Shown piece after piece: positions 5,732-25,956 of a DNA stretch of 64,000 bases. The stretch is from contig JBBRPI010000017.1 in assembly GCA_038228305.1 (NCBI GenBank), positions 532 to 64,531 on the forward strand. Direction: 5' to 3'. The position numbers and the translations under genes are program-made. Numbering within the stretch: the stretch's first letter is position 1; each line of letters starts with the position of its first letter. This DNA is from Sphingomonadales bacterium. GTDB taxonomy: Bacteria; Pseudomonadota; Alphaproteobacteria; Sphingomonadales; Sphingomonadaceae. A model generated the notes under the pieces. That model was not told the DNA's origin, searched no databases, and was given only the letters and a program-made list of their open reading frames with translations.

Positions 5732-6970
5732 ATGGCAGCACGCCGTTACGGGCAAGACAGCATCATCGCCGGCTGGCTGGTGGCAATCGCCTATCTGGCG
5801 CACCAGCAGTTGACGGTGTTTCTGGCGCGCAGCGATCGTTTTGGGCCGCTGCGAGAGGATTATCGCGGCTGGCACTATTTGCTTGGCACGCTGGCCTTTG
5901 CTGCGGTGGCCTGGCGGCTGTGGCTGTGGCGGCGTGATGGCGCCGTCGCCCCGGCGATGGGCGTATCTGCGGCGGCGCACAATTGGGGGCGCTGGCTGGC
6001 GCTGATTTCCTATTGTCTGATCTTTGCCGCGCCGTTCCTGGGGGTGTTTTACGCTTGGTCGGACGAACTGAAAATCCATCTGGGGCCGTTTGTGACCCTG
6101 CCCAGCCTGATGCCGCGTAGCCGGGCGGTATGGATGTTTACCGGCTATTTTCATTCCGGCCTCGGCTTTATGCTGATGGTGATCACGGTCGCGGCGGTGC
6201 TGACACTGGGGTATAATCTGCTGCGCCGGGGCAAGGGAATGCTGGCGGTGATGCCGCCTGGGTTTGGCCCGCAGGTTGTGTTGGGCATGGCATCAACGGT
6301 TTATGCGTTTTCAACGTTTCGTTCGCCCGCGCCGGGGCCTCGAGCGCTGGCGATCTTCTTTGGGATTTGCGCGCTGGTCTGGGGCCTATCCTGGCTCATC
6401 CACCGCAACCGCCGCGATGTTGATGCGCGATTGCCGTTGGGCGGTTTTGCCCGCGTTGCCGCCCCGGTGGCGGCGCTGTCGCTGCTCGGACTGGGCGGCT
6501 ATGGGCCGCACGCCTTGTTCAAGGTGACGCCATGGCCGATGGGCGAAACGGTGAAGGCACCAGAGGGCGTGACATCGCATGAGATGCCGGCGACCCCGGT
6601 GGTGATGACCCCTGAAACCCCATTCGAGCGGCAGGTGAGGGCCGAAACCTATAAATGGTGCCGGTTCTGCCATACTGTTGCGAAAAATGGCCCGCATCTG
6701 GTTGGCCCAAATCTATATGGCATTTTCGGTCAGCGCGCCGGCACCGTGCCCAATTTCACCTATTCGACCGCGCTCGCCGATGCCGGGCGCAAGGGGCTGG
6801 TGTGGACGCCGGAACGCATCGCCTGGTATATTGCCGATCCCCAGAAACATCTGCCCGGCACCGCGATGATCGTGTCTTCGGGGCCAATTCCCGATCCAAA
6901 GGTGCAGGTGGCGGTGGTGAATATCCTGCGCCGCGAAACCATGGCGGATGGGGTTCAGCCGGCGCCGTGA
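5732..6970 (+). CDS. Cytochrome b561-like membrane domain fused to a class I c-type cytochrome
   Basis: About 7 TM segments with WHYLLG and GYFHSG; C-terminal CRFCH heme motif followed by GPNLYGIFGQRAG and PGTAM (axial Met), as in cytochrome c2. Confidence 0.85.
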   Translation: MAARRYGQDSIIAGWLVAIAYLAHQQLTVFLARSDRFGPLREDYRGWHYLLGTLAFAAVAWRLWLWRRDGAVAPAMGVSAAAHNWGRWLALISYCLIFAAPFLGVFYAWSDELKIHLGPFVTLPSLMPRSRAVWMFTGYFHSGLGFMLMVITVAAVLTLGYNLLRRGKGMLAVMPPGFGPQVVLGMASTVYAFSTFRSPAPGPRALAIFFGICALVWGLSWLIHRNRRDVDARLPLGGFARVAAPVAALSLLGLGGYGPHALFKVTPWPMGETVKAPEGVTSHEMPATPVVMTPETPFERQVRAETYKWCRFCHTVAKNGPHLVGPNLYGIFGQRAGTVPNFTYSTALADAGRKGLVWTPERIAWYIADPQKHLPGTAMIVSSGPIPDPKVQVAVVNILRRETMADGVQPAP

Positions 6971-6976
6971 CGCCCG

Positions 6977-7864
6977 CTATGCCGCGCCGGCAAGCACGCC
7001 GGCTGCGCGTGCGAAATCGATGATCAGCGCGGCATGTTCTGCCGGTGCTTCCTCATGCGCCAGATGGCCGAGCTTTGGCAGCAGCATCAGCGTCGGCAGC
7101 GGCAGTTTTGCTGCGACCTGGCGGGATGTGCTGGCCGGCACTGTCGCATCGCGCTCACCGTGGATCAACAGCACCGGGGTTTGCAAACCGGCGAGCCCGC
7201 GTTCGACCGGCACCAGATCCCAATGTGCCATCAGCGCCAGCGCGCCATGAACATGGCCGGAATTGGCCATCAACCGCGCATACAGCGCCATGCCGATGGG
7301 ATCGACGCGGGATCCGGTTGATCGGGGCAGGAACGATCCGATCATGCCGGGCTGGCGCGCGCCGAACGCAAACAGGCTGGGGGTGATCGGATTGTCAAAC
7401 AATATCCGCGCCATGGCTGGGAACAATTTGCCTGCCATGTCAGCGAAAGGCAGCAGCGCGCCGCACAGGCTGATCAGCGCCTGCGGTTTGGCCAGGCCCA
7501 GATCGGCCATGGTGACGGCGATTGCGGCACCGGCGGAATGGCCGGCGATGATCGCCGGCTGCAGGTCCAGCGCGGTCATCAGCGCCGACAGCGCCCGGCT
7601 GACGGCGGGCAGATTCGGGCGTTTCAGGGCGCTGGTAAAACCATGGCCGGGAAGGTCAGGCGCAACAACGGTGAAATGTTCGGCAAGCAACGGCGCCAGA
7701 TCGCGCCAGCTATGGGTTGAGGCAGCGGTGCCGTGGAGCAGGAGCAGCACGGGGCCGTTTCCCATCACCTGCACATGCCATTTCAGCTCGCCGCCGTCGA
7801 CAAAGCGGCTGCTGGCGGCGTTTGGCCAATCCCTGCCGTCAGTGCTCCAGCGCAGCGCCGTCAT
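6977..7864 (-). CDS. bchO: BchO alpha/beta hydrolase (Mg-chelatase-associated)
   Basis: WPNAASSRFV, LLLHGTAASTHSWRD, GHSAG nucleophile elbow, GHLAHEE; lies directly after bchD with a 4-nt overlap. Confidence 0.93.
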   Translation of the reverse strand: MTALRWSTDGRDWPNAASSRFVDGGELKWHVQVMGNGPVLLLLHGTAASTHSWRDLAPLLAEHFTVVAPDLPGHGFTSALKRPNLPAVSRALSALMTALDLQPAIIAGHSAGAAIAVTMADLGLAKPQALISLCGALLPFADMAGKLFPAMARILFDNPITPSLFAFGARQPGMIGSFLPRSTGSRVDPIGMALYARLMANSGHVHGALALMAHWDLVPVERGLAGLQTPVLLIHGERDATVPASTSRQVAAKLPLPTLMLLPKLGHLAHEEAPAEHAALIIDFARAAGVLAGAA

Positions 7865-9603
7865 GATGCGGCATTCACCGCGGCGACGACGGCGCGGGCA
7901 TCAAGCCGGGGCAGCGCGACAAAGCGCGCACCCATCGCGGCGGCCAACGCTGCACCTTCCGGGCGCGGGCGTGGGCTGCAATCGATGAACACGGCTGAAA
8001 TTCCTGTGCTTCCCAGGGTGCGCGCGCTGGCCAGCGCCAATTCCTGCGGGTTTGTGCCGCCGACATTGGCGCGGCCATCGGTCAGGATGACAATCAATGG
8101 CGTACGGCCCCGCGCGCGCTCAGCTTCGGCCACCTTGCGCGCCATGTCGATGCCCGCTGCCATCGGCGTGCCGCCGCCACCGGCCAGCGCCGCCAGTTCG
8201 CGTTTGGCGCGGGCCAGCGATCGGGTGGGCGGCAGGGTGATCGCCGCCGCATCGCCGCGAAACGCCACCAGTGCGACTTCGGCACGTTTGACATAGGCCT
8301 GGGCAAGCAGCAGTTCGACGGCGCCCTTTGCCTCGGAAAGCCGGGAAAAGGCTGCGGACCCTGATGCATCGACGGCAAAGATCGTCGTCGATTGGGCACG
8401 CGCGACAAAGCGGCGGATGCGCAGATCGTCATGGCGGATCGACAGCCGGCCATCCTCGCGCCGGGGTCGCAATTTCTGCCAGGGGGCGGCGGTCTTGATG
8501 GTTTCGATCAGTGCCAGCCTTGCGCCGCGCCCCGGCGCCCCGGCGCGCACCCCGGCGGGGCGGCCCGATGTCAGCGATTTCAGTTTTGCGCCCGAACTGC
8601 CGCTGCCCGGCGATTTCATCTGGATGCCATTGGCCAGGGCATCGAGCAGGCCCGGCGGCAAGCAAGTCTGGGCGGCATCCAGCACGATATCGGTCGGATC
8701 GGGCGGCGGCTGGTCGGGCGTATCGGGGCTGTCATTGGCACTGTCATCTGATGGGGGCGGCGGCTCGGGCGGTTGATCGGGGGCTTCCTCCGGCGACGGC
8801 GGCGCGTCACCGGGGGGCAGGCGCGTGGCGCGCGGGCCCAGCACCAGCGCAGCAGCAGCCTCGATGTCGCCGGCCGCAATCGCCCTGCGGCCATCCAGTG
8901 CGGCATGGGCATAGGCCAATCGCTGTGCCTGGATCGGGGCACGGATCGAATCGATGCCGAGCAACAGCGCCGCCGAAGCCAGCGCCGCCGACGCATCGTC
9001 GATCGGTTCGCCGGCCTCGATATCGTTCACCTGTGGCGGAAATCCGGTTTCGCCGGCCAGCAGCGCCGCCATCGGCAAGCGGACGTCATTCAGATCGAGA
9101 TGGATCGCCAGCCGGTCAGCCAGCGCCGCCGAAACATGCGCATCACCGTCGCCCGCCGCATCCGATTCATCGAACAGCACCAGCCGCAGGCCAGTGTCAT
9201 CCAGCGCCATGGCAAGCCGGGCGGCGAGCGCCGGCGACAGGCGTTCCGCCATCGGCACCAGCAGAATGCCGCCGCCAATTTCGGCCAGCAGGCCGTGTTT
9301 GCGCACCGGGCGGCCGCTGGCCAGCGTTGCCGTCAGGTCCAGCCCGCCATCCAGCGCCTCCGCATCGGCGCTGGCGGGCAGGCGTCGGATTGTCGCGACC
9401 ATGGCCAGCGCCGCCGCCCAGGCATCCCGCACCGGGCCGGGGCGGGCGCGCAGCACGATACCGCCAAGGCCAGCGGGGGTTGCGACCAGAATTTCGATCG
9501 CGGTCAGCGCCAGTGCCCAGCGGGTGGCGCTGGCCGCGGCCTGAGAATTGGCCGCGACGGCGTCATCTGCCTTTGGCGGCGGAGACAGCGCCGTGTCGAT
9601 CAC
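7861..9603 (-). CDS. bchD: Magnesium chelatase subunit D
   Basis: Degenerate AAA N-terminus, Pro/acidic linker, C-terminal vWA domain (FAVDASGS, GGGTP, LTDGRAN). Confidence 0.96.
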   Translation of the reverse strand: MIDTALSPPPKADDAVAANSQAAASATRWALALTAIEILVATPAGLGGIVLRARPGPVRDAWAAALAMVATIRRLPASADAEALDGGLDLTATLASGRPVRKHGLLAEIGGGILLVPMAERLSPALAARLAMALDDTGLRLVLFDESDAAGDGDAHVSAALADRLAIHLDLNDVRLPMAALLAGETGFPPQVNDIEAGEPIDDASAALASAALLLGIDSIRAPIQAQRLAYAHAALDGRRAIAAGDIEAAAALVLGPRATRLPPGDAPPSPEEAPDQPPEPPPPSDDSANDSPDTPDQPPPDPTDIVLDAAQTCLPPGLLDALANGIQMKSPGSGSSGAKLKSLTSGRPAGVRAGAPGRGARLALIETIKTAAPWQKLRPRREDGRLSIRHDDLRIRRFVARAQSTTIFAVDASGSAAFSRLSEAKGAVELLLAQAYVKRAEVALVAFRGDAAAITLPPTRSLARAKRELAALAGGGGTPMAAGIDMARKVAEAERARGRTPLIVILTDGRANVGGTNPQELALASARTLGSTGISAVFIDCSPRPRPEGAALAAAMGARFVALPRLDARAVVAAVNAAS

Positions 9604-10616
9604 GCCGGGATCAGCTCTGCCACAGCGCGGGCAATGCGCCCGGTCGATCCGGTGTCATCCAGAACATTGCGGCGCAGGCGATGGCGCAGGGCGAGTGCGG
9701 CGACGGCGGCGATATGGGCCGGGGCAACGGCTTTCTTATGGGCCAGCGCCGCGGTGGCGCGGGCAGCACGCAGCAGGGTGAGTTCACCGCGCAGGCCATC
9801 GGCGCCAACGGCCTGGCACAGCCGGCTGCCCAGTTCGAGCATGGCGTCGGAGACGGTGACATTGGGCAGGCGTTTGCGGGCGGTGGCGATGCCGGTCAGC
9901 GTTGCGGATTCTTCGGCCGCAAAATCGGCGGCGAAGCCATCGGGGTCACGATCAAAGCGGTCACAGCGTTTGACGATCTCGATGCGTTCGGCAAGCTCGG
10001 TCGGGGTGCGCACATCCACCGAAAGCCCGAACCGATCGAGGAGCTGTGGCCGCAATTCGCCTTCCTCGGGATTGCCCGAACCGACCAGGATGAATCGCGC
10101 CGCATGACGGATGCTCAACCCCTCTCGCTCAACCACATTCTGGCCCGATACTGCAACATCGAGCAGCAGATCGACAAGATGATCCTCCAGCAGGTTGATC
10201 TCGTCGATGTAAAGAAAGCCGCGATTGGCCTTGGCCAGCAAGCCGGGTTCAAAGCGCTTTTCGCCGGTTGCCAGCGCACGTTCCAGATCGAGGCTACCGA
10301 CGACGCGATCTTCGGTGGCGCCCAGCGGCAGATCGACAAACGGCACGGCGATGCTGGCGGTTTTCTTGCCGGCAATCTTGCGGCAATCATCGGGGCAGGG
10401 GGTGGTATCGGCCGGCGCGCAGCCATAGCGGCAGCCGGCGACGACCAGCATCGGCGGCAACAGCGCCGCAAGTGCCCGGACGGCAGTGGATTTGCCGGTG
10501 CCCCGATCGCCAAACACCATGACGCCGCCCAGCCGCGGTTCGACCGCCGCCATCAACAGCGCTTGTTTCATTTCTGTCTGGCCGACAATGGCCGAAAACG
10601 GGAAGGGGGTTTTCAT
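9600..10616 (-). CDS. bchI: Magnesium chelatase ATPase subunit I
   Basis: FPFSAIVGQ, GDRGTGKST, LYIDEINLL, NPEEGELRPQLLDRFG, GLRGEL. Confidence 0.98.
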   Translation of the reverse strand: MKTPFPFSAIVGQTEMKQALLMAAVEPRLGGVMVFGDRGTGKSTAVRALAALLPPMLVVAGCRYGCAPADTTPCPDDCRKIAGKKTASIAVPFVDLPLGATEDRVVGSLDLERALATGEKRFEPGLLAKANRGFLYIDEINLLEDHLVDLLLDVAVSGQNVVEREGLSIRHAARFILVGSGNPEEGELRPQLLDRFGLSVDVRTPTELAERIEIVKRCDRFDRDPDGFAADFAAEESATLTGIATARKRLPNVTVSDAMLELGSRLCQAVGADGLRGELTLLRAARATAALAHKKAVAPAHIAAVAALALRHRLRRNVLDDTGSTGRIARAVAELIPA

Positions 10617-21500: not shown

Positions 21501-21622
21501 GGTTTGCCGGCCCAAGCTTGTGCCTGGCGTCCAAAAAATGCGATGAGTGCACCGCAACGTCGGCGGTCATGGTGCCACACCCCTGCTGCCAGCCGTCTTG
21601 CCTTGCGCTACAGCCCCACAGC

Positions 21623-22300
21623 ATGCCGTCTGATACCGTTCTTGCCTTAACTGGCCTTGCCAAGTCCGTTCCCGGCGGCCGTGTGCTGTTTTCCGGGCTG
21701 AATCTCGCCGTCGCTCCCGGTGAAATCATCGCCATCATGGGTGAATCCGGGGTGGGCAAATCGACCCTGCTCAATTTGATCGCCGGGCTGGACAGCGCCG
21801 ATGCAGGCGACATCCATATTGCCGGCAATGATCTGGGCCAATTGAACGATGATGCCCGCACGTTGCTTCGGCTCCGCCATATCGGTTTTGTCTTTCAGGC
21901 GTTCCACATCCTTCCGCATTTGACGCTGGCCCAGAATGTCGCGCTGCCGCTCGCGCTCGCCGGCAGCGACGCTGGCGCTACGCTGGCCGCTGCAGGCGCA
22001 ATGCTGGCCAATGTCGGGTTACCGGATCGCGACACAGATTTCCCATCCCAACTGTCTGGCGGCGAATTGCAACGTATCGCCATCGCCCGGGCATTGGTTC
22101 ATGCCCCGGCTCTGATTTTGGCCGATGAACCCACCGGCAATCTGGACCCCGAAACCGCCGCCCGAATCCTGACGCTGTTGACGGCGCAAATCCGTGCGTC
22201 GGGCGCCGCTGCGATTATCGTCACCCACAGCGACCGCGCCGCTGCCATTGCCGATCGCGTGCTGGTGTTGGGTCGGGATGGGCTGGTGGCGCGTGAGTGA
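21623..22300 (+). CDS. ABC transporter ATP-binding protein (LolD/AttE-like)
   Basis: GESGVGKST, LSGGELQRIAIARAL, ILADEPTGNLD, IIVTHS. Confidence 0.93.
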   Translation: MPSDTVLALTGLAKSVPGGRVLFSGLNLAVAPGEIIAIMGESGVGKSTLLNLIAGLDSADAGDIHIAGNDLGQLNDDARTLLRLRHIGFVFQAFHILPHLTLAQNVALPLALAGSDAGATLAAAGAMLANVGLPDRDTDFPSQLSGGELQRIAIARALVHAPALILADEPTGNLDPETAARILTLLTAQIRASGAAAIIVTHSDRAAAIADRVLVLGRDGLVARE

Positions 22301-22372
22301 AGTGCCTCCGGCGGCTGGAGCCTTGTGCGCCAGACCCTATTTTGCCGAGACTGAACCCAGAACACCGATCTG

Positions 22373-24922
22373 GTGCGCAGGGCCCCAGTCGCCGGAGGCA
22401 CTTTGATCGCCCTCACCCCCGCCCGCTGGCTGCTCATCGGCGAATGGCGCGCGCATCCCGGTCGGCTGATCATCGCGGTGCTGGCGATTGCAGTTGGCGT
22501 CGCGTTGGGATTTGCCGTGCATCTGGTCAACCAGACTGCGCTGGACAGTTTCGGAAGGGCGCTGCGCAGTGTAAACGGCGGTGCCGATCTGCAGGTTCAT
22601 GCGGCGACTGCGACCGGATTTGATGAAGGTCTGTACCCGCAGATTGCCGGTGTCGCCGGAGTCGCGTCGACCAGCCCGGTGATCGAACTGGCCGCAAGCA
22701 GTGGCACGATCGCCCCGCCCGGTACCCGTTCCAACGGGGGATCGCGTTTTACCTTGTTGGGGCTCGATCTGTTGCGGGCTGCTGTCGTCACCCCGGGCCT
22801 GTTGCCGTCCGCTGCCCCCGGCGTTGACAGCGTTTTCCTGTCCGGCCCGGCGTTGATCGCGCTCAATCGCCACATTGGTCAAAGGCTGACGATCGACGCC
22901 GCCGGGCGCAGTCACACCTTTACAATTTCAGGTACAATTCCCGGGGCTGATGACACAGCGCTGGCGATAATCGATATTGCCGATGCGCAGTGGCGGTTCG
23001 GCCAATTGGGCCGGTTGCAACGGCTGGATTTGCGGCTCGCGCCCGGTGCGGATCCTGCCGTGGTCAGCACCGCGCTGGCGGCAATCCTGCCTGTGGGCGG
23101 CAGCATCGAAACGCCGGCCAGCGCGGCGGGACGCACGGACAGCCTATCTCGCGCCTATCGCGTCAATCTGGAAATGTTGGCGATGGTGGCGCTGCTGACT
23201 GGCGGTTTCCTGGTCTATTCGGCGCAATCGCTCGCCGTTGCCCGCCGCGCGCCGCATTTTGCACTGCTGCGTGTTCTGGGGCTAAAGGCAAGTGCTCTGA
23301 CCGGGCAGGTCGTTGCCGAGGGTGCACTGCTTGGGGTTGCCGGCGCTGCATTTGGTCTGGCGCTGGGCTATGGCCTTGCCGTGCTCACGTTGCGATTACT
23401 GGGCGGCGATCTGGGCAGTGGGATGCTGCGCGATGCCGCACCAGAACTGCATTTTTCGCTTCCCGCCGCGATTGCCTTTGGCGGCATCGGCATCGTCGTA
23501 GCCATGGCGAGCAGCCTGGTTCCGGCCCGCGCCGCCGCCCGTGCTCGGCCGGCAATCACGCTGAAATCCAGCGACAATGCTGGCGATCAACGGCCCGATG
23601 CCCAGCTTGGCGTCACCGTGATCATCATTGGCGGCATTGCTGCGCTTGGGCCGCCGCTATGGGGCCTGCCGCTGCTTGGTTACGCCGCGATGGCGCTGCT
23701 GCTTGCCGGTGGTATCGCCATCATGCCGTGGGTTGCGCGTGCCTTGCTCGGTCTTGTGCCTGCCCGCCGCCTTGCGCCGCCGCTGGACCTCGCGCTCAAA
23801 CGTCTGAGGGGCGCCCCTGGCCAGGCCGCGGTGGCGCTGTGCGGCATTGTCGCCTCGACGGCGTTGATGGTGGCGATGGCGGTGATGGTCACGAGTTTTC
23901 GCGGTTCGGTTGATTCCTGGCTGACGCAGATTCTGCCGTCCGACATTTATCTGCACCTGGAAGGCGCAGACGCTGGTGGGCTGGATGCGGCGGCGCAAGC
24001 CCGGCTGGCCGCAACACCGGGCATCGTATCGATGCGCTTTGTCCGCCAGATGCCGCTGCGGCTGGCCGCGGATAAACCACCGGTGCTGCTGTCCGGCCAA
24101 CCCATCGATGCCGGCAACCCGGCAGCCCATCTGGCGATGATCGGTGGAACCGTGGCGGTTCCAGTGGGGGCAACCCCGGTCTGGGTTTCCGAACCCATGG
24201 GTTGGCTATACGGCTTGAAACCCGGCGACCAGATCAGCCTGCCGCTGGGCGGCGCCGCGCGGCCAGTTTTCGTTGCCGGCGTCTGGCGCGATTATGCCCG
24301 GCAATTTGGCGCGATTGCGATGCGTGATACCGATCTGGCGCGTTTGACCGGCGATGCCACCAAAACCGAGGCAGCCATCGATGTTGCGCCGAGAGCCGAT
24401 ATTCCCCGCAGCATCGCCGCGTTGCGCCAGCGCCTGCCAGTTGCGGTCGCAGGGCAGGCGATGTTTGGCCAGCCACGCCAGATGCGAGCCATGGCGCTAA
24501 CAATTTTTGACCGCAGTTTTGCCATCACATATGCCCTGGAGGCGATCGCCATCATTATCGGCTTGATTGGAATCGCCGCAACATTTTCGGCGCAGGTTCT
24601 GGCACGGACGCGGGAATTCGGAATGCTGCGCCACATCGGCGTGACACGGCGGCAGATCATGACGATGCTGGCTGCTGAAGGCGCATTGCTCGGCACTGTC
24701 GGCAGTATTGCCGGAATTACTTTGGGCGTGGTGATGAGCCAGGTGCTGATCGACGTCATCAACCCGCAGAGTTTCCACTGGACAATGGACACCAGCTTGC
24801 CGTGGGGCCTGCTCGGACTGCTGGCGGTCGCCCTCGTCGCGGCAGCGGCTGGCACTGCGGTGCTAGCAGGTCGGCAAGCAGTGTCGGCGCATGCCGTGCG
24901 CGCGGTAAGGGATGATTGGTAA
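22373..24922 (+). CDS. FtsX-like ABC permease (AttF/G-like, two MacB/FtsX units)
   Basis: Two periplasmic + TM repeats; FALLRVLG and REFGMLRHIG motifs. Start codon uncertain. Confidence 0.9.
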   Translation: MRRAPVAGGTLIALTPARWLLIGEWRAHPGRLIIAVLAIAVGVALGFAVHLVNQTALDSFGRALRSVNGGADLQVHAATATGFDEGLYPQIAGVAGVASTSPVIELAASSGTIAPPGTRSNGGSRFTLLGLDLLRAAVVTPGLLPSAAPGVDSVFLSGPALIALNRHIGQRLTIDAAGRSHTFTISGTIPGADDTALAIIDIADAQWRFGQLGRLQRLDLRLAPGADPAVVSTALAAILPVGGSIETPASAAGRTDSLSRAYRVNLEMLAMVALLTGGFLVYSAQSLAVARRAPHFALLRVLGLKASALTGQVVAEGALLGVAGAAFGLALGYGLAVLTLRLLGGDLGSGMLRDAAPELHFSLPAAIAFGGIGIVVAMASSLVPARAAARARPAITLKSSDNAGDQRPDAQLGVTVIIIGGIAALGPPLWGLPLLGYAAMALLLAGGIAIMPWVARALLGLVPARRLAPPLDLALKRLRGAPGQAAVALCGIVASTALMVAMAVMVTSFRGSVDSWLTQILPSDIYLHLEGADAGGLDAAAQARLAATPGIVSMRFVRQMPLRLAADKPPVLLSGQPIDAGNPAAHLAMIGGTVAVPVGATPVWVSEPMGWLYGLKPGDQISLPLGGAARPVFVAGVWRDYARQFGAIAMRDTDLARLTGDATKTEAAIDVAPRADIPRSIAALRQRLPVAVAGQAMFGQPRQMRAMALTIFDRSFAITYALEAIAIIIGLIGIAATFSAQVLARTREFGMLRHIGVTRRQIMTMLAAEGALLGTVGSIAGITLGVVMSQVLIDVINPQSFHWTMDTSLPWGLLGLLAVALVAAAAGTAVLAGRQAVSAHAVRAVRDDW

Positions 24923-25956
24923 TGCGCTGGCTGGTCTGTTTGTTGCTGCTGGGTGCGGCGCCCATCGATTACCCGTCTGTTCGCCCTGGCACGCCGATCA
25001 TCTTTCCCCGCGATCACGGCGCCCATCCCGATTTTCGCACCGAATGGTGGTATGTCACCGGCTGGCTGACGACCGCCGAGGGCCAGCAACGTGGTTTTCA
25101 GTTGACGTTTTTTCGAACCCGGCCGGCGGTGAATGACGCCAACCCAAGCAAGTTCACCCCGCGCCAGATAATGTTTGCCCATGCCGCGATTGCCGCGCCC
25201 AAAGCCGGCCATTTGGTCCATGACCAACGCATTTCCCGCGCGGGCTTTGGCCTTGCGGATGCGAGAGTCGGTGACATGGCGGTCAAGGTCGATGACTGGA
25301 CACTGGTGCGCAGACCCGACGGCATTTTCCGCGCTCGCGTCACCGCCAGCAGCTTTGACCTCAACATTGCGTTGACGCCGACCCAGCCACCTTTGCTGCA
25401 AGGCCGCGCTGGGTACAGCCAGAAAGGCCCCGATCCTCGCGAAGCCAGCCATTATTACAGCATACCCCAGCTTCGCGTCTCCGGCACGCTGGATGCCCAG
25501 CCCGTCACCGGCACCGCCTGGATGGATCGCGAATGGTCATCAACCTTGCTCAACCCGCGCGCCACTGGCTGGGATTGGCTGGGGCTGAACATGGACGACG
25601 GTGGCGCGTTGACGCTGTTTCGCGTTCGCGATGCCGCTGGCGCTGCTGTTTGGGCCGGCGGTTCCTATCGCGACAAAGATGGTGAAGTGACAATCCTGAA
25701 ACAGACCGATGTCCGATTTGCCGTCACGCGACGCTGGCGGTCGCCGCGAACAGGCGCCAGCTATCCGGTTGCCCCCACGGTCAGTTTCCTGCTGCGCGGC
25801 AAAAAATTGGAATTGCTGGTAAAACCTTTGTTTGACGACCAGGAACTTGACAGCCGGCGCGGTGGCGGCCCGGTGTATTGGGAGGGTGCTGTCACCGTGC
25901 CCGGCGGGCGGGGCTATCTTGAAATGACCGGCTATCAAAAACCGTTGAATATGTAG
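24922..25956 (+). CDS. AttH / carotenoid 1,2-hydratase-like lipocalin-fold protein
   Basis: FPRDHGAHPDFRTEWWYVTG, ASHYYSIP, WMDREWS, GWDWLG, YWEGAV, GYLEMTGY; 1-nt overlap with the permease stop. Confidence 0.92.
   Translation: MRWLVCLLLLGAAPIDYPSVRPGTPIIFPRDHGAHPDFRTEWWYVTGWLTTAEGQQRGFQLTFFRTRPAVNDANPSKFTPRQIMFAHAAIAAPKAGHLVHDQRISRAGFGLADARVGDMAVKVDDWTLVRRPDGIFRARVTASSFDLNIALTPTQPPLLQGRAGYSQKGPDPREASHYYSIPQLRVSGTLDAQPVTGTAWMDREWSSTLLNPRATGWDWLGLNMDDGGALTLFRVRDAAGAAVWAGGSYRDKDGEVTILKQTDVRFAVTRRWRSPRTGASYPVAPTVSFLLRGKKLELLVKPLFDDQELDSRRGGGPVYWEGAVTVPGGRGYLEMTGYQKPLNM

Follow-up and report, generated by a model that had tools for sequence, protein, structure and literature searches.

What does a protein do that places a cytochrome b561-like membrane bundle and a class I cytochrome c on one polypeptide, and does its position beside bacteriochlorophyll genes bear on that function? 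The question was raised by a gene at 5732..6970 on the plus strand of a 64,000-nucleotide stretch of a Sphingomonadales bacterium genome (assembly GCA_038228305.1, contig JBBRPI010000017.1, positions 532 to 64,531), referred to here, at its full length, as the window. An earlier interpretation made from the letters alone (the sequence-only reading) had proposed a degenerate b561 fused to a cytochrome c2-like domain, acting as a transmembrane electron wire from quinol to haem c and possibly serving the reaction centre or an oxidase, or else a superoxide oxidase-like photoprotective enzyme. Our analysis agreed that a haem b module of the b561 type and a haem c domain of class I are united in one chain, and suggested that the product is an inner-membrane redox protein complete in itself, with a periplasmic-side haem b and a haem c. 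Both haems are very probably bound, with electrons passing between them along the periplasmic face.

Fold and predicted haem sites of the fused protein

The gene is an intact frame of 412 codons, the only long frame at this position with homologues, and a purine-rich stretch lies 7-13 bases 5' of its ATG. Because homologue alignments span 97-100% of the 412-amino-acid protein, the gene and its start were considered sound. Full-length relatives form more than 300 clusters of about 400-420 amino acids at 49-81% identity and carry the automatic labels 'cytochrome c2/cytochrome b561' or 'c-type cytochrome'. A promoter and terminator scan of the locus gave no signal above shuffled expectation. Conservation was counted in a 121-row family alignment and in a second alignment of 57 sequences, which was also the basis of the AlphaFold model; the frame, the homologues and the model together delimited a one-haem b561 module, a helical hairpin, an anchor helix and a cytochrome c domain.

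The AlphaFold model from these 57 homologues (pLDDT 92.6, pTM 0.89) contained seven membrane helices (residues 8-32, 39-69, 80-110, 131-166, 178-195, 202-224 and 238-256), followed by an ordered linker and the cytochrome c domain, and at this pTM the domain arrangement was regarded as confidently fixed. The first four helices make up a CybB-like b561 bundle (residues 1-176, 5732..6259, plus strand as for all features of the gene), assigned from fold comparison with 5oc0_A and from hhalign, and the last three are the roughly three extra transmembrane helices that had been counted from the sequence. Helices 5 and 6 form a hairpin in the model (residues 178-224, 6263..6403). Helix 7, the anchor of the c domain, leads into a conserved periplasmic linker, G-P-x-x-x-F-x-V-T-P-W-P (together residues 238-296, 6443..6619), and the c domain itself, of the mitochondrial c / c2 type of class I, occupies residues 297-403 (6620..6940) according to phmmer, fold and NCBIfam.

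The relationship of the membrane part to b561 was recovered by profile alignment or fold comparison and not by plain sequence search. In Pfam, the match of residues 15-154 to PF01292 (prokaryotic cytochrome b561) scored 16.9 bits where 30.1 are required (E 0.0055); in precomputed annotation, the gathering threshold was passed by some family members only. Residues 1-290 returned only chance matches, with E above 1, when searched by sequence against the PDB. Profile-profile alignment (hhalign) of the family with canonical b561 gave a probability of 99.3% (E 3.3e-20), and model residues 3-176 superposed on E. coli superoxide oxidase (5OC0, chain 5oc0_A) with a Z of 13.2 and an rmsd of 2.8 Å over 167 of 174 residues (VIA-align), the next-best membrane-protein folds reaching a Z of 8.4 and below. 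The likeness to b561 was therefore beyond chance, despite the sub-threshold Pfam score.

The C-terminal domain was assigned more directly. It gave a Z of 14.5 to cytochrome c (9msz_A, rmsd 1.4 Å, 100 residues), 13.1 to Paracoccus denitrificans c552 and 12.8 to c2. Its target-normalised Foldseek TM score was 0.87, and when the complete model was submitted to Foldseek, cytochromes c were the sole matches. The NCBIfam CycA (cytochrome c-550 domain) model matched residues 306-381 (7.6e-12), and residues 308-382 aligned with mitochondrial cytochrome c, including those of horse and mouse (phmmer against the PDB, E 9e-18). The haem c attachment motif, Cys310-Arg-Phe-Cys-His314 (6659..6673), was read from the sequence and is invariant in the family. 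Met379, the predicted sixth haem c ligand in P-G-T-A-M379 (6866..6868), is likewise invariant, aligns with Met80 of mitochondrial cytochrome c and lies about 65 residues past CxxCH, which is the class I pattern; the CRFCH class I cytochrome c of the sequence-only reading was thereby borne out.

The N terminus is predicted to lie inside and the C terminus outside, which would place the c domain in the periplasm rather than the cytoplasm, as the model and charge counts both indicated. Across the 57 sequences, Lys plus Arg averaged 12.3 in the inside loops and 7.6 in the outside loops, with net charges of +9.7 and +1.4, respectively. By this positive-inside bias, the CxxCH domain would be periplasmic, and haem c attachment takes place in that compartment.

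The haem b ligands defined the family. His48 on helix 2, in G-W-H-Y (5873..5875), and His141 on helix 4, in Y-F-H-S (6152..6154), both on the periplasmic side, are predicted from the alignments to bind haem b, and they correspond to 5OC0 His45 and His137, respectively. His141 was found in 121/121 family rows and His48 in 120/121, the remaining row being gapped, and the two are the sole conserved histidines of the membrane part among the 121 members. The retention of these WHY and FHS histidines had been noticed from the sequence, as had the absence of the other two b561 ligands, and both observations held. In place of the canonical His-Trp that supplies the first cytoplasmic-side haem ligand, helix 1 has Gly14-Trp15 (5771..5776); Trp15 is invariant and Gly14 at least 90% conserved in the 57-sequence alignment, and glycine occupied position 14 in 10 of 13 fused representatives. 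There is no histidine 14 residues past His141, the second helix-4 position being Val, Ala or Leu in the window protein and its relatives. The positions of 5OC0 His13 and His151 were non-His in all 26 one-haem sequences compared (13 fused and 13 free-standing), and four of five canonical b561 controls had His at both; the fifth, a divergent paralogue from the window's own genome (L118_4), read Val-Trp in helix 1 but retained the second helix-4 His. A second haem site made from other histidines was considered and rejected, as His24, His83 and His224 occurred in just 87, 55 and 86 of the 121 members.

In E. coli superoxide oxidase, haem 1 (ligands His13 and His151) sits at the cytoplasmic quinone site, whose residues include His87 and His158, and the periplasmic haem is the superoxide site, with a cationic antenna of R30, R35, R38, R108 and K134 (PMC11869295). 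Of the four histidines that bind two haems b in PF01292, the window protein has His48 and His141 and no others, and the superoxide oxidase quinone site at haem 1 lacks its haem ligands here, with His83 present in only 55/121 members. The protein keeps the PF01292/superoxide oxidase fold but lacks two of the features that define this membership, the four His ligands and the quinone site. Since the two-His pattern is invariant in the family and common to free-standing relatives, it represents a conserved design and not degeneration, contrary to the word 'degenerate' in the initial description. With the cytoplasmic-side ligands and the adjoining E. coli-type quinone site gone, the protein is also not a transmembrane wire carrying electrons from quinol to haem c, and electron transfer is confined to the periplasmic face. 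The sites that remain leave room for two haems, a haem b close to the periplasmic surface and a periplasmic haem c.

The surface above haem b is also conserved. Periplasmic loop 1 (5828..5866) has four conserved cationic residues in the alignments, Arg33, Lys/Arg36, Arg41 and Arg45; these positions are invariant in the 57 sequences although the loop faces outward, counter to the positive-inside rule. The segment R33-S-D-R36 aligns with R35-S-D-R38 of the E. coli antenna, position 36 always being Lys or Arg, and Arg33, Arg41, Arg45, Arg62 and Trp15 are conserved in at least 95% of the 121 rows and invariant in the 57-sequence alignment. E. coli CybB (the superoxide:ubiquinone oxidoreductase of 5OC0) is a known protein with the same four-helix bundle, periplasmic-side His pair, R-S-D-R loop motif and stand-alone gene. 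Unlike CybB, to which it is about 15% identical, the window protein lacks counterparts of His13 and His151 and the quinone site, falls below the Pfam threshold, and adds three helices and a covalently linked cytochrome c.

A two-gene form and the origin of the fusion

When residues 1-290 were queried against a set of 1.84 billion representative proteins, only 36 clusters were retrieved, about ten of them full length, and the next-best matches were b561 proteins of about 180 amino acids with the same two-His pattern. A metagenome scan for such free-standing one-haem b561 proteins yielded 21 loci (L094-L114). At all 19 loci with downstream DNA, the next same-strand gene was an open reading frame of 177-205 amino acids with exactly one CxxCH, separated by a gap of at most about 40 bp or overlapping. 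This cytochrome c aligned to residues 249-403 of the fused protein (helix 7, linker and c domain; 37% identity, E 3e-29) and has the unusual W-C-R-F-C-H and the axial Met in common with it. The pairing of a free-standing b561 with a cytochrome c gene matching residues 249-403 indicated that the window protein is a fusion of a two-gene operon. In a tree of b561 modules, one-haem sequences stood apart from canonical b561 with a support of 99, and the fused forms made up one group, also with a support of 99, consistent with one fusion event. As the split cytochrome c subunit aligns from residue 249 only, nothing in the two-gene form corresponds to helices 5 and 6; they look like a joining hairpin between two formerly separate gene products. 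That the b561 and cytochrome c genes are obligately paired is the best indication of joint action by the two haems.

The two-gene operon was found in marine low-GC and other metagenome contigs (for example, L104:5983-7037). In the marine group, the gene order was MFS, alpha/beta hydrolase, b561, cytochrome c, DUF1838, MFS and CoA-transferase III. Alpha/beta hydrolases were considered as a neighbour common to fused and split genes and were discarded, being unrelated to each other and to BchO.

The same pairing bears on the possibility that the protein is simply a membrane-tethered cytochrome c, like cy or c552, that shuttles between bc1 and oxidases or the reaction centre, with the b561 bundle and its haem being structural. 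Tethered cytochromes c are common in Alphaproteobacteria, haems b of unclear role occur in other membrane anchors, and the fold matches of the c domain to c552 and c2 fit such a function. Rhodobacter cy and Paracoccus c552 are also alike in being periplasmic His/Met cytochromes c held by an N-terminal helix and a linker. In those proteins, however, the anchor neither is a haem-binding b561 bundle nor is always paired with one, as here, and the window c domain belongs to its own W-C-R-F-C-H subgroup, common only to the split-operon partners. One helix would suffice as an anchor; the split c subunit has one, yet it is always encoded with a b561 partner, and the His pair and cationic loop are invariant. 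In addition, the genome encodes a separate lipoprotein-type cytochrome c. We consider a purely anchoring role for the b561 module quite unlikely. The separate protein (L002:1348-1977, on G000:C15) is cytochrome c2-like, has a linker rich in Ala, Thr and Pro, bears a lipoprotein-type signal (L-A-A-C), and is probably the cell's ordinary membrane-tethered cytochrome c.

Possible electron donors to haem b

The results show the architecture, the ligand pattern, the predicted topology, the origin by fusion and the independence from bchIDO; from them we infer that both haems are bound, which way the electrons move and what supplies them. The N-terminal bundle derives from a di-haem cytochrome b561 of the CybB type that lost its cytoplasmic-side haem and the adjoining quinone site, and the predicted bis-His haem b site at His48 and His141 has been retained under a strongly cationic loop. 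Helix 7 would anchor the periplasmic His/Met cytochrome c, which would dock on the haem b face. Single electrons would enter at haem b, supplied at the membrane surface by superoxide or by some comparable one-electron donor. Haem c would have taken over from quinone as the electron sink and would hand electrons to cytochrome c oxidase or another c-type acceptor. A superoxide-type donor was preferred because the retained part of the ancestral protein is the superoxide-reactive part, with its invariant cationic loop, and because what was lost is the quinone end, in whose place stands a c haem of high potential able to feed an oxidase. By analogy with the half-reaction of superoxide oxidase, such a donor at haem b is plausible, with a chance we put somewhat below even; a role of this type was among those offered in the sequence-only reading. 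The complete proposal is more tentative still: a new type of superoxide scavenger, a superoxide:cytochrome c oxidoreductase, in which the periplasmic half of the membrane-bound superoxide oxidase now delivers to its own cytochrome c domain instead of to quinone.

Several points weigh against a superoxide-fed protein. Two of the five E. coli antenna residues have clear counterparts, Arg33 and Lys/Arg36 matching R35 and R38; R108 and K134 have no clear ones, and the matching residues are less conserved in the split forms. The loop arginines may just be paired with the haem propionates. Cytochrome c reacts with superoxide unaided, so the advantage of an antenna at haem b is not obvious. The window's own genome already encodes four canonical b561 genes, and it has a bc1 marker (cytochrome c1) and other cytochromes c; therefore, no role is forced on the fused protein by a gap elsewhere.

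Haem b could alternatively be reduced by ubiquinol. In such a quinol:cytochrome c relay, ubiquinol would be oxidised at an outer-leaflet site by haem b, as at the distal haem of NarI, and electrons would pass from b to c and on to an oxidase, a bypass of bc1 without a Q cycle. Electron exchange with quinones is known for several PF01292 relatives, established redox chemistry makes transfer from b to a c haem of high potential downhill, and conserved aromatic or polar residues are located at the periplasmic ends of helices 2, 4 and 5 (Tyr49, Trp134, Tyr139, Ser142 and Tyr191). An analogous fusion of NarI with cytochrome c also exists: a search of the ESM Atlas returned a 592-amino-acid family with a NarI-type nitrate reductase gamma domain and cytochrome c domains, another joining of a haem b module to haem c. 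However, the sole quinone site documented for this fold lies at the lost cytoplasmic haem (PMC11869295), the split form does without helices 5 and 6, from which a new site would most obviously be built, and a complete bc1 marker, cytochrome c1, is present in the genome. On balance, quinol oxidation by the fused protein seems unlikely.

Other b561 proteins linked to periplasmic redox partners resemble the family in part. FdnI and HyaC (PF01292; formate dehydrogenase-N and hydrogenase-1) have a periplasmic-side haem fed by a partner docked on the periplasmic face; unlike the window protein, they are di-haem transmembrane relays to quinone, and their fold similarity to it is weaker (Z 7.3-7.5). 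'Cytbc' of Gallionellaceae sp. KS (PMC5566968) also has an N-terminal b561 and a C-terminal c-type haem in one inner-membrane protein. It differs in its di-haem c domain, its iron-oxidation (mto) cluster and the proposed delivery of electrons to quinone, a distinction that we draw from its description and not from its sequence. The literature search found no paper on the family and no description of a one-haem b561 clade paired with cytochrome c.

The LcoA-BcnA system of Alphaproteobacteria is similar in that its b561 either shares a two-gene operon with a periplasmic partner or is fused to it, and a role in oxidative-stress chemistry at the membrane has been proposed for it (PMC9113575). Its partner is a YceI lipocalin and not a cytochrome c, and LcoA has been described as a two-haem b561 (PMC9113575). 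This precedent for pairing a b561 with a periplasmic barrel raised the possibility that the fused protein is an acceptor module, to which a Tat-exported DUF1838 beta-barrel or another enzyme would give electrons or a hydrophobic ligand. Genes of one DUF1838 subgroup lay no more than 6 kb from the fused gene at 16 of 81 loci (a set made up of the 80 related loci and the window's own first 17 kb), in several orders (L026, L032, L034, L041, L045, L047, L060, L062, L069-L071, L073, L075, L081, L082 and L086; L122 and L123 are in the window's own genome). Members of this subgroup were 43-49% identical to each other and 27-30% identical to paralogues. DUF1838 also lay directly 3' of the split operon in marine loci, and most copies beside the fused gene bore twin-arginine signals. 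Against such a partnership, DUF1838 was absent beside most loci, the window included, and the marine copies had no signal peptide. The AlphaFold model of the DUF1838 protein (pLDDT 78.5) was a soluble beta-barrel whose matches, to phycobiliprotein lyase, nitrobindin-like and YceI-like folds, were generic (Z of 8 or lower). In the sampled gammaproteobacterial family, chance adjacency is not negligible, as most genomes carried 3-26 copies; DUF1838 was present in 59/61 of these genomes, with one copy in two and none in two. As six congeners carrying the fused gene had no match to the linked subgroup at E 1e-60, DUF1838 as an obligate partner was not supported at the genome level in the genus, and we regard a DUF1838-type donor as improbable. 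The L123 copy (G000:C4:29096-29971) showed one in-frame TGA in the genome-wide search, yet its 288-amino-acid frame is uninterrupted; its start or an N-terminal extension may be disrupted.

Genomic neighbourhood, phototrophy and significance

The stop of the fused gene (6968-6970) lies 6 bp from that of the convergent bchO (6977-7864, minus strand), the end of a bchO-bchD-bchI trio at 6977..10616 on the minus strand, all three genes passing their NCBIfam cut-offs (TIGR03056, NF009943 and TIGR02030). The convergence recorded in the sequence-only reading was accurate, and it made a role in photosynthesis worth considering, either as a reaction-centre donor or as a photoprotective enzyme co-inherited with photosynthesis genes. 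The only other point in favour of such a role was that pufLM was found in 23/49 genomes carrying the gene and in 16/150 of a sample of the order. The genome samples were draws of related genomes, many of them incomplete metagenome-assembled genomes.

The locus itself argued against this connection. pufLM lies on another contig of the same genome (C10, G000:C10:78217-79874), so bchIDO here is a detached trio, and no further photosynthesis genes were seen in 10.6-27.5 kb of the window. None of the 80 related loci from public genomes had bchO, bchD or bchI within 10 kb of the homologue, and in five congeners carrying the gene bchO was on a different contig. In the related loci, the gene was mostly solitary among unrelated neighbours, like cybB.

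The distribution of the gene was similarly unfavourable. In the window's genus, pufLM was present in 22/24 genomes and the gene in 6/24, and 17 pufLM-positive genomes lacked the gene; in the order sample, the gene was found in 2/150. In 61 genomes of the gammaproteobacterial family, 12 had the gene and three had pufLM; the two occurred together only in the chosen centre genome, while 11 other carriers lacked pufLM and both other phototrophs lacked the gene. Outside close relatives, pufLM was present in 16/40 carriers. Carriers without pufLM include a complete Parasphingorhabdus chromosome and Niveispirillum irakense DSM 11586, a cultured non-phototroph; Azospirillum sp. RU38E and strain AAP38 are further carriers in culture. 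Co-occurrence of the gene with pufLM within clades was not borne out: pooled carriers were enriched for pufLM, an excess confounded by kinship and habitat, and no association was seen in either within-clade comparison, the genus or the gammaproteobacterial family. A photosynthetic function is largely refuted by this distribution and is, in our estimation, highly improbable, and the link to bchIDO or the reaction centre did not survive. The gene is a patchy accessory gene of aerobic Alpha- and Gammaproteobacteria, common in lineages rich in aerobic phototrophs and not tied to the photosynthetic apparatus.

On its upstream side, the fused gene is flanked by clpB, a glyoxalase-fold gene and, in divergent orientation, a serine hydrolase gene of the beta-lactamase family (PF00144; 4364..5575, minus strand). 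The latter is a conserved syntenic neighbour in Sphingomonadales, found beside the homologue in about 38/80 related loci of the Sphingomonadales type at 50-82% identity and absent at gammaproteobacterial loci; no functional link between it and the fused gene is shown. Past bchIDO lie a cryptochrome-related gene, gyrB and transport genes. Farther along, at 21518-25956 of the window, a MacB-type ABC transporter pair (ABC_tran and FtsX/MacB_PCD) precedes a CrtC-like double lipocalin protein, away from carotenoid and bacteriochlorophyll genes.

Three further observations concern the related loci. A class I S-adenosylmethionine (SAM) methyltransferase of roughly 350-400 amino acids, its N-terminal half of unknown type, was encoded within about 3 kb of the fused gene in 38/81 loci, often with a soluble protein of roughly 115 amino acids without a family match and with the motif K-G-K-R-P ... 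L-A-x-E-x-x-V-x-x-D-R; positions and orientations varied (examples are L044:11273-12415, L029:5527-7077 and L058:8200-8559). Three gammaproteobacterial loci had a run of methyltransferase, small protein, LemA, M48 peptidase and fused gene. Contigs labelled 'Burkholderiales bacterium PBB2' (NKIM01000071.1) and 'Synechococcus sp. UW140' (CALRKY020000007.1) carried the gene at 80% and 72% identity with neighbours typical of Sphingomonadales, the beta-lactamase-family gene in both and clpB also in NKIM01000071.1; both contigs are probably mis-binned.

For annotation, the lesson of this locus is that the adjacency to bchIDO is an accident of this genome without functional meaning. Bacterial b561 proteins are usually viewed as two-haem, membrane-spanning wires to quinone, and the family described here is a conserved one-haem derivative without the quinone end, tied to cytochrome c as an operon partner or by fusion. 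If quinol is oxidised at its haem b, the protein would amount to a minimal way around bc1. Should haem b have kept its reactivity towards superoxide, the electrons of superoxide could be recycled by a second route, one that joins the respiratory chain at cytochrome c. As a superoxide:cytochrome c oxidoreductase, the protein would recover for the terminal oxidase those electrons that leak to oxygen at the membrane surface, in settings such as sunlit oxic water or beside bacteriochlorophyll.

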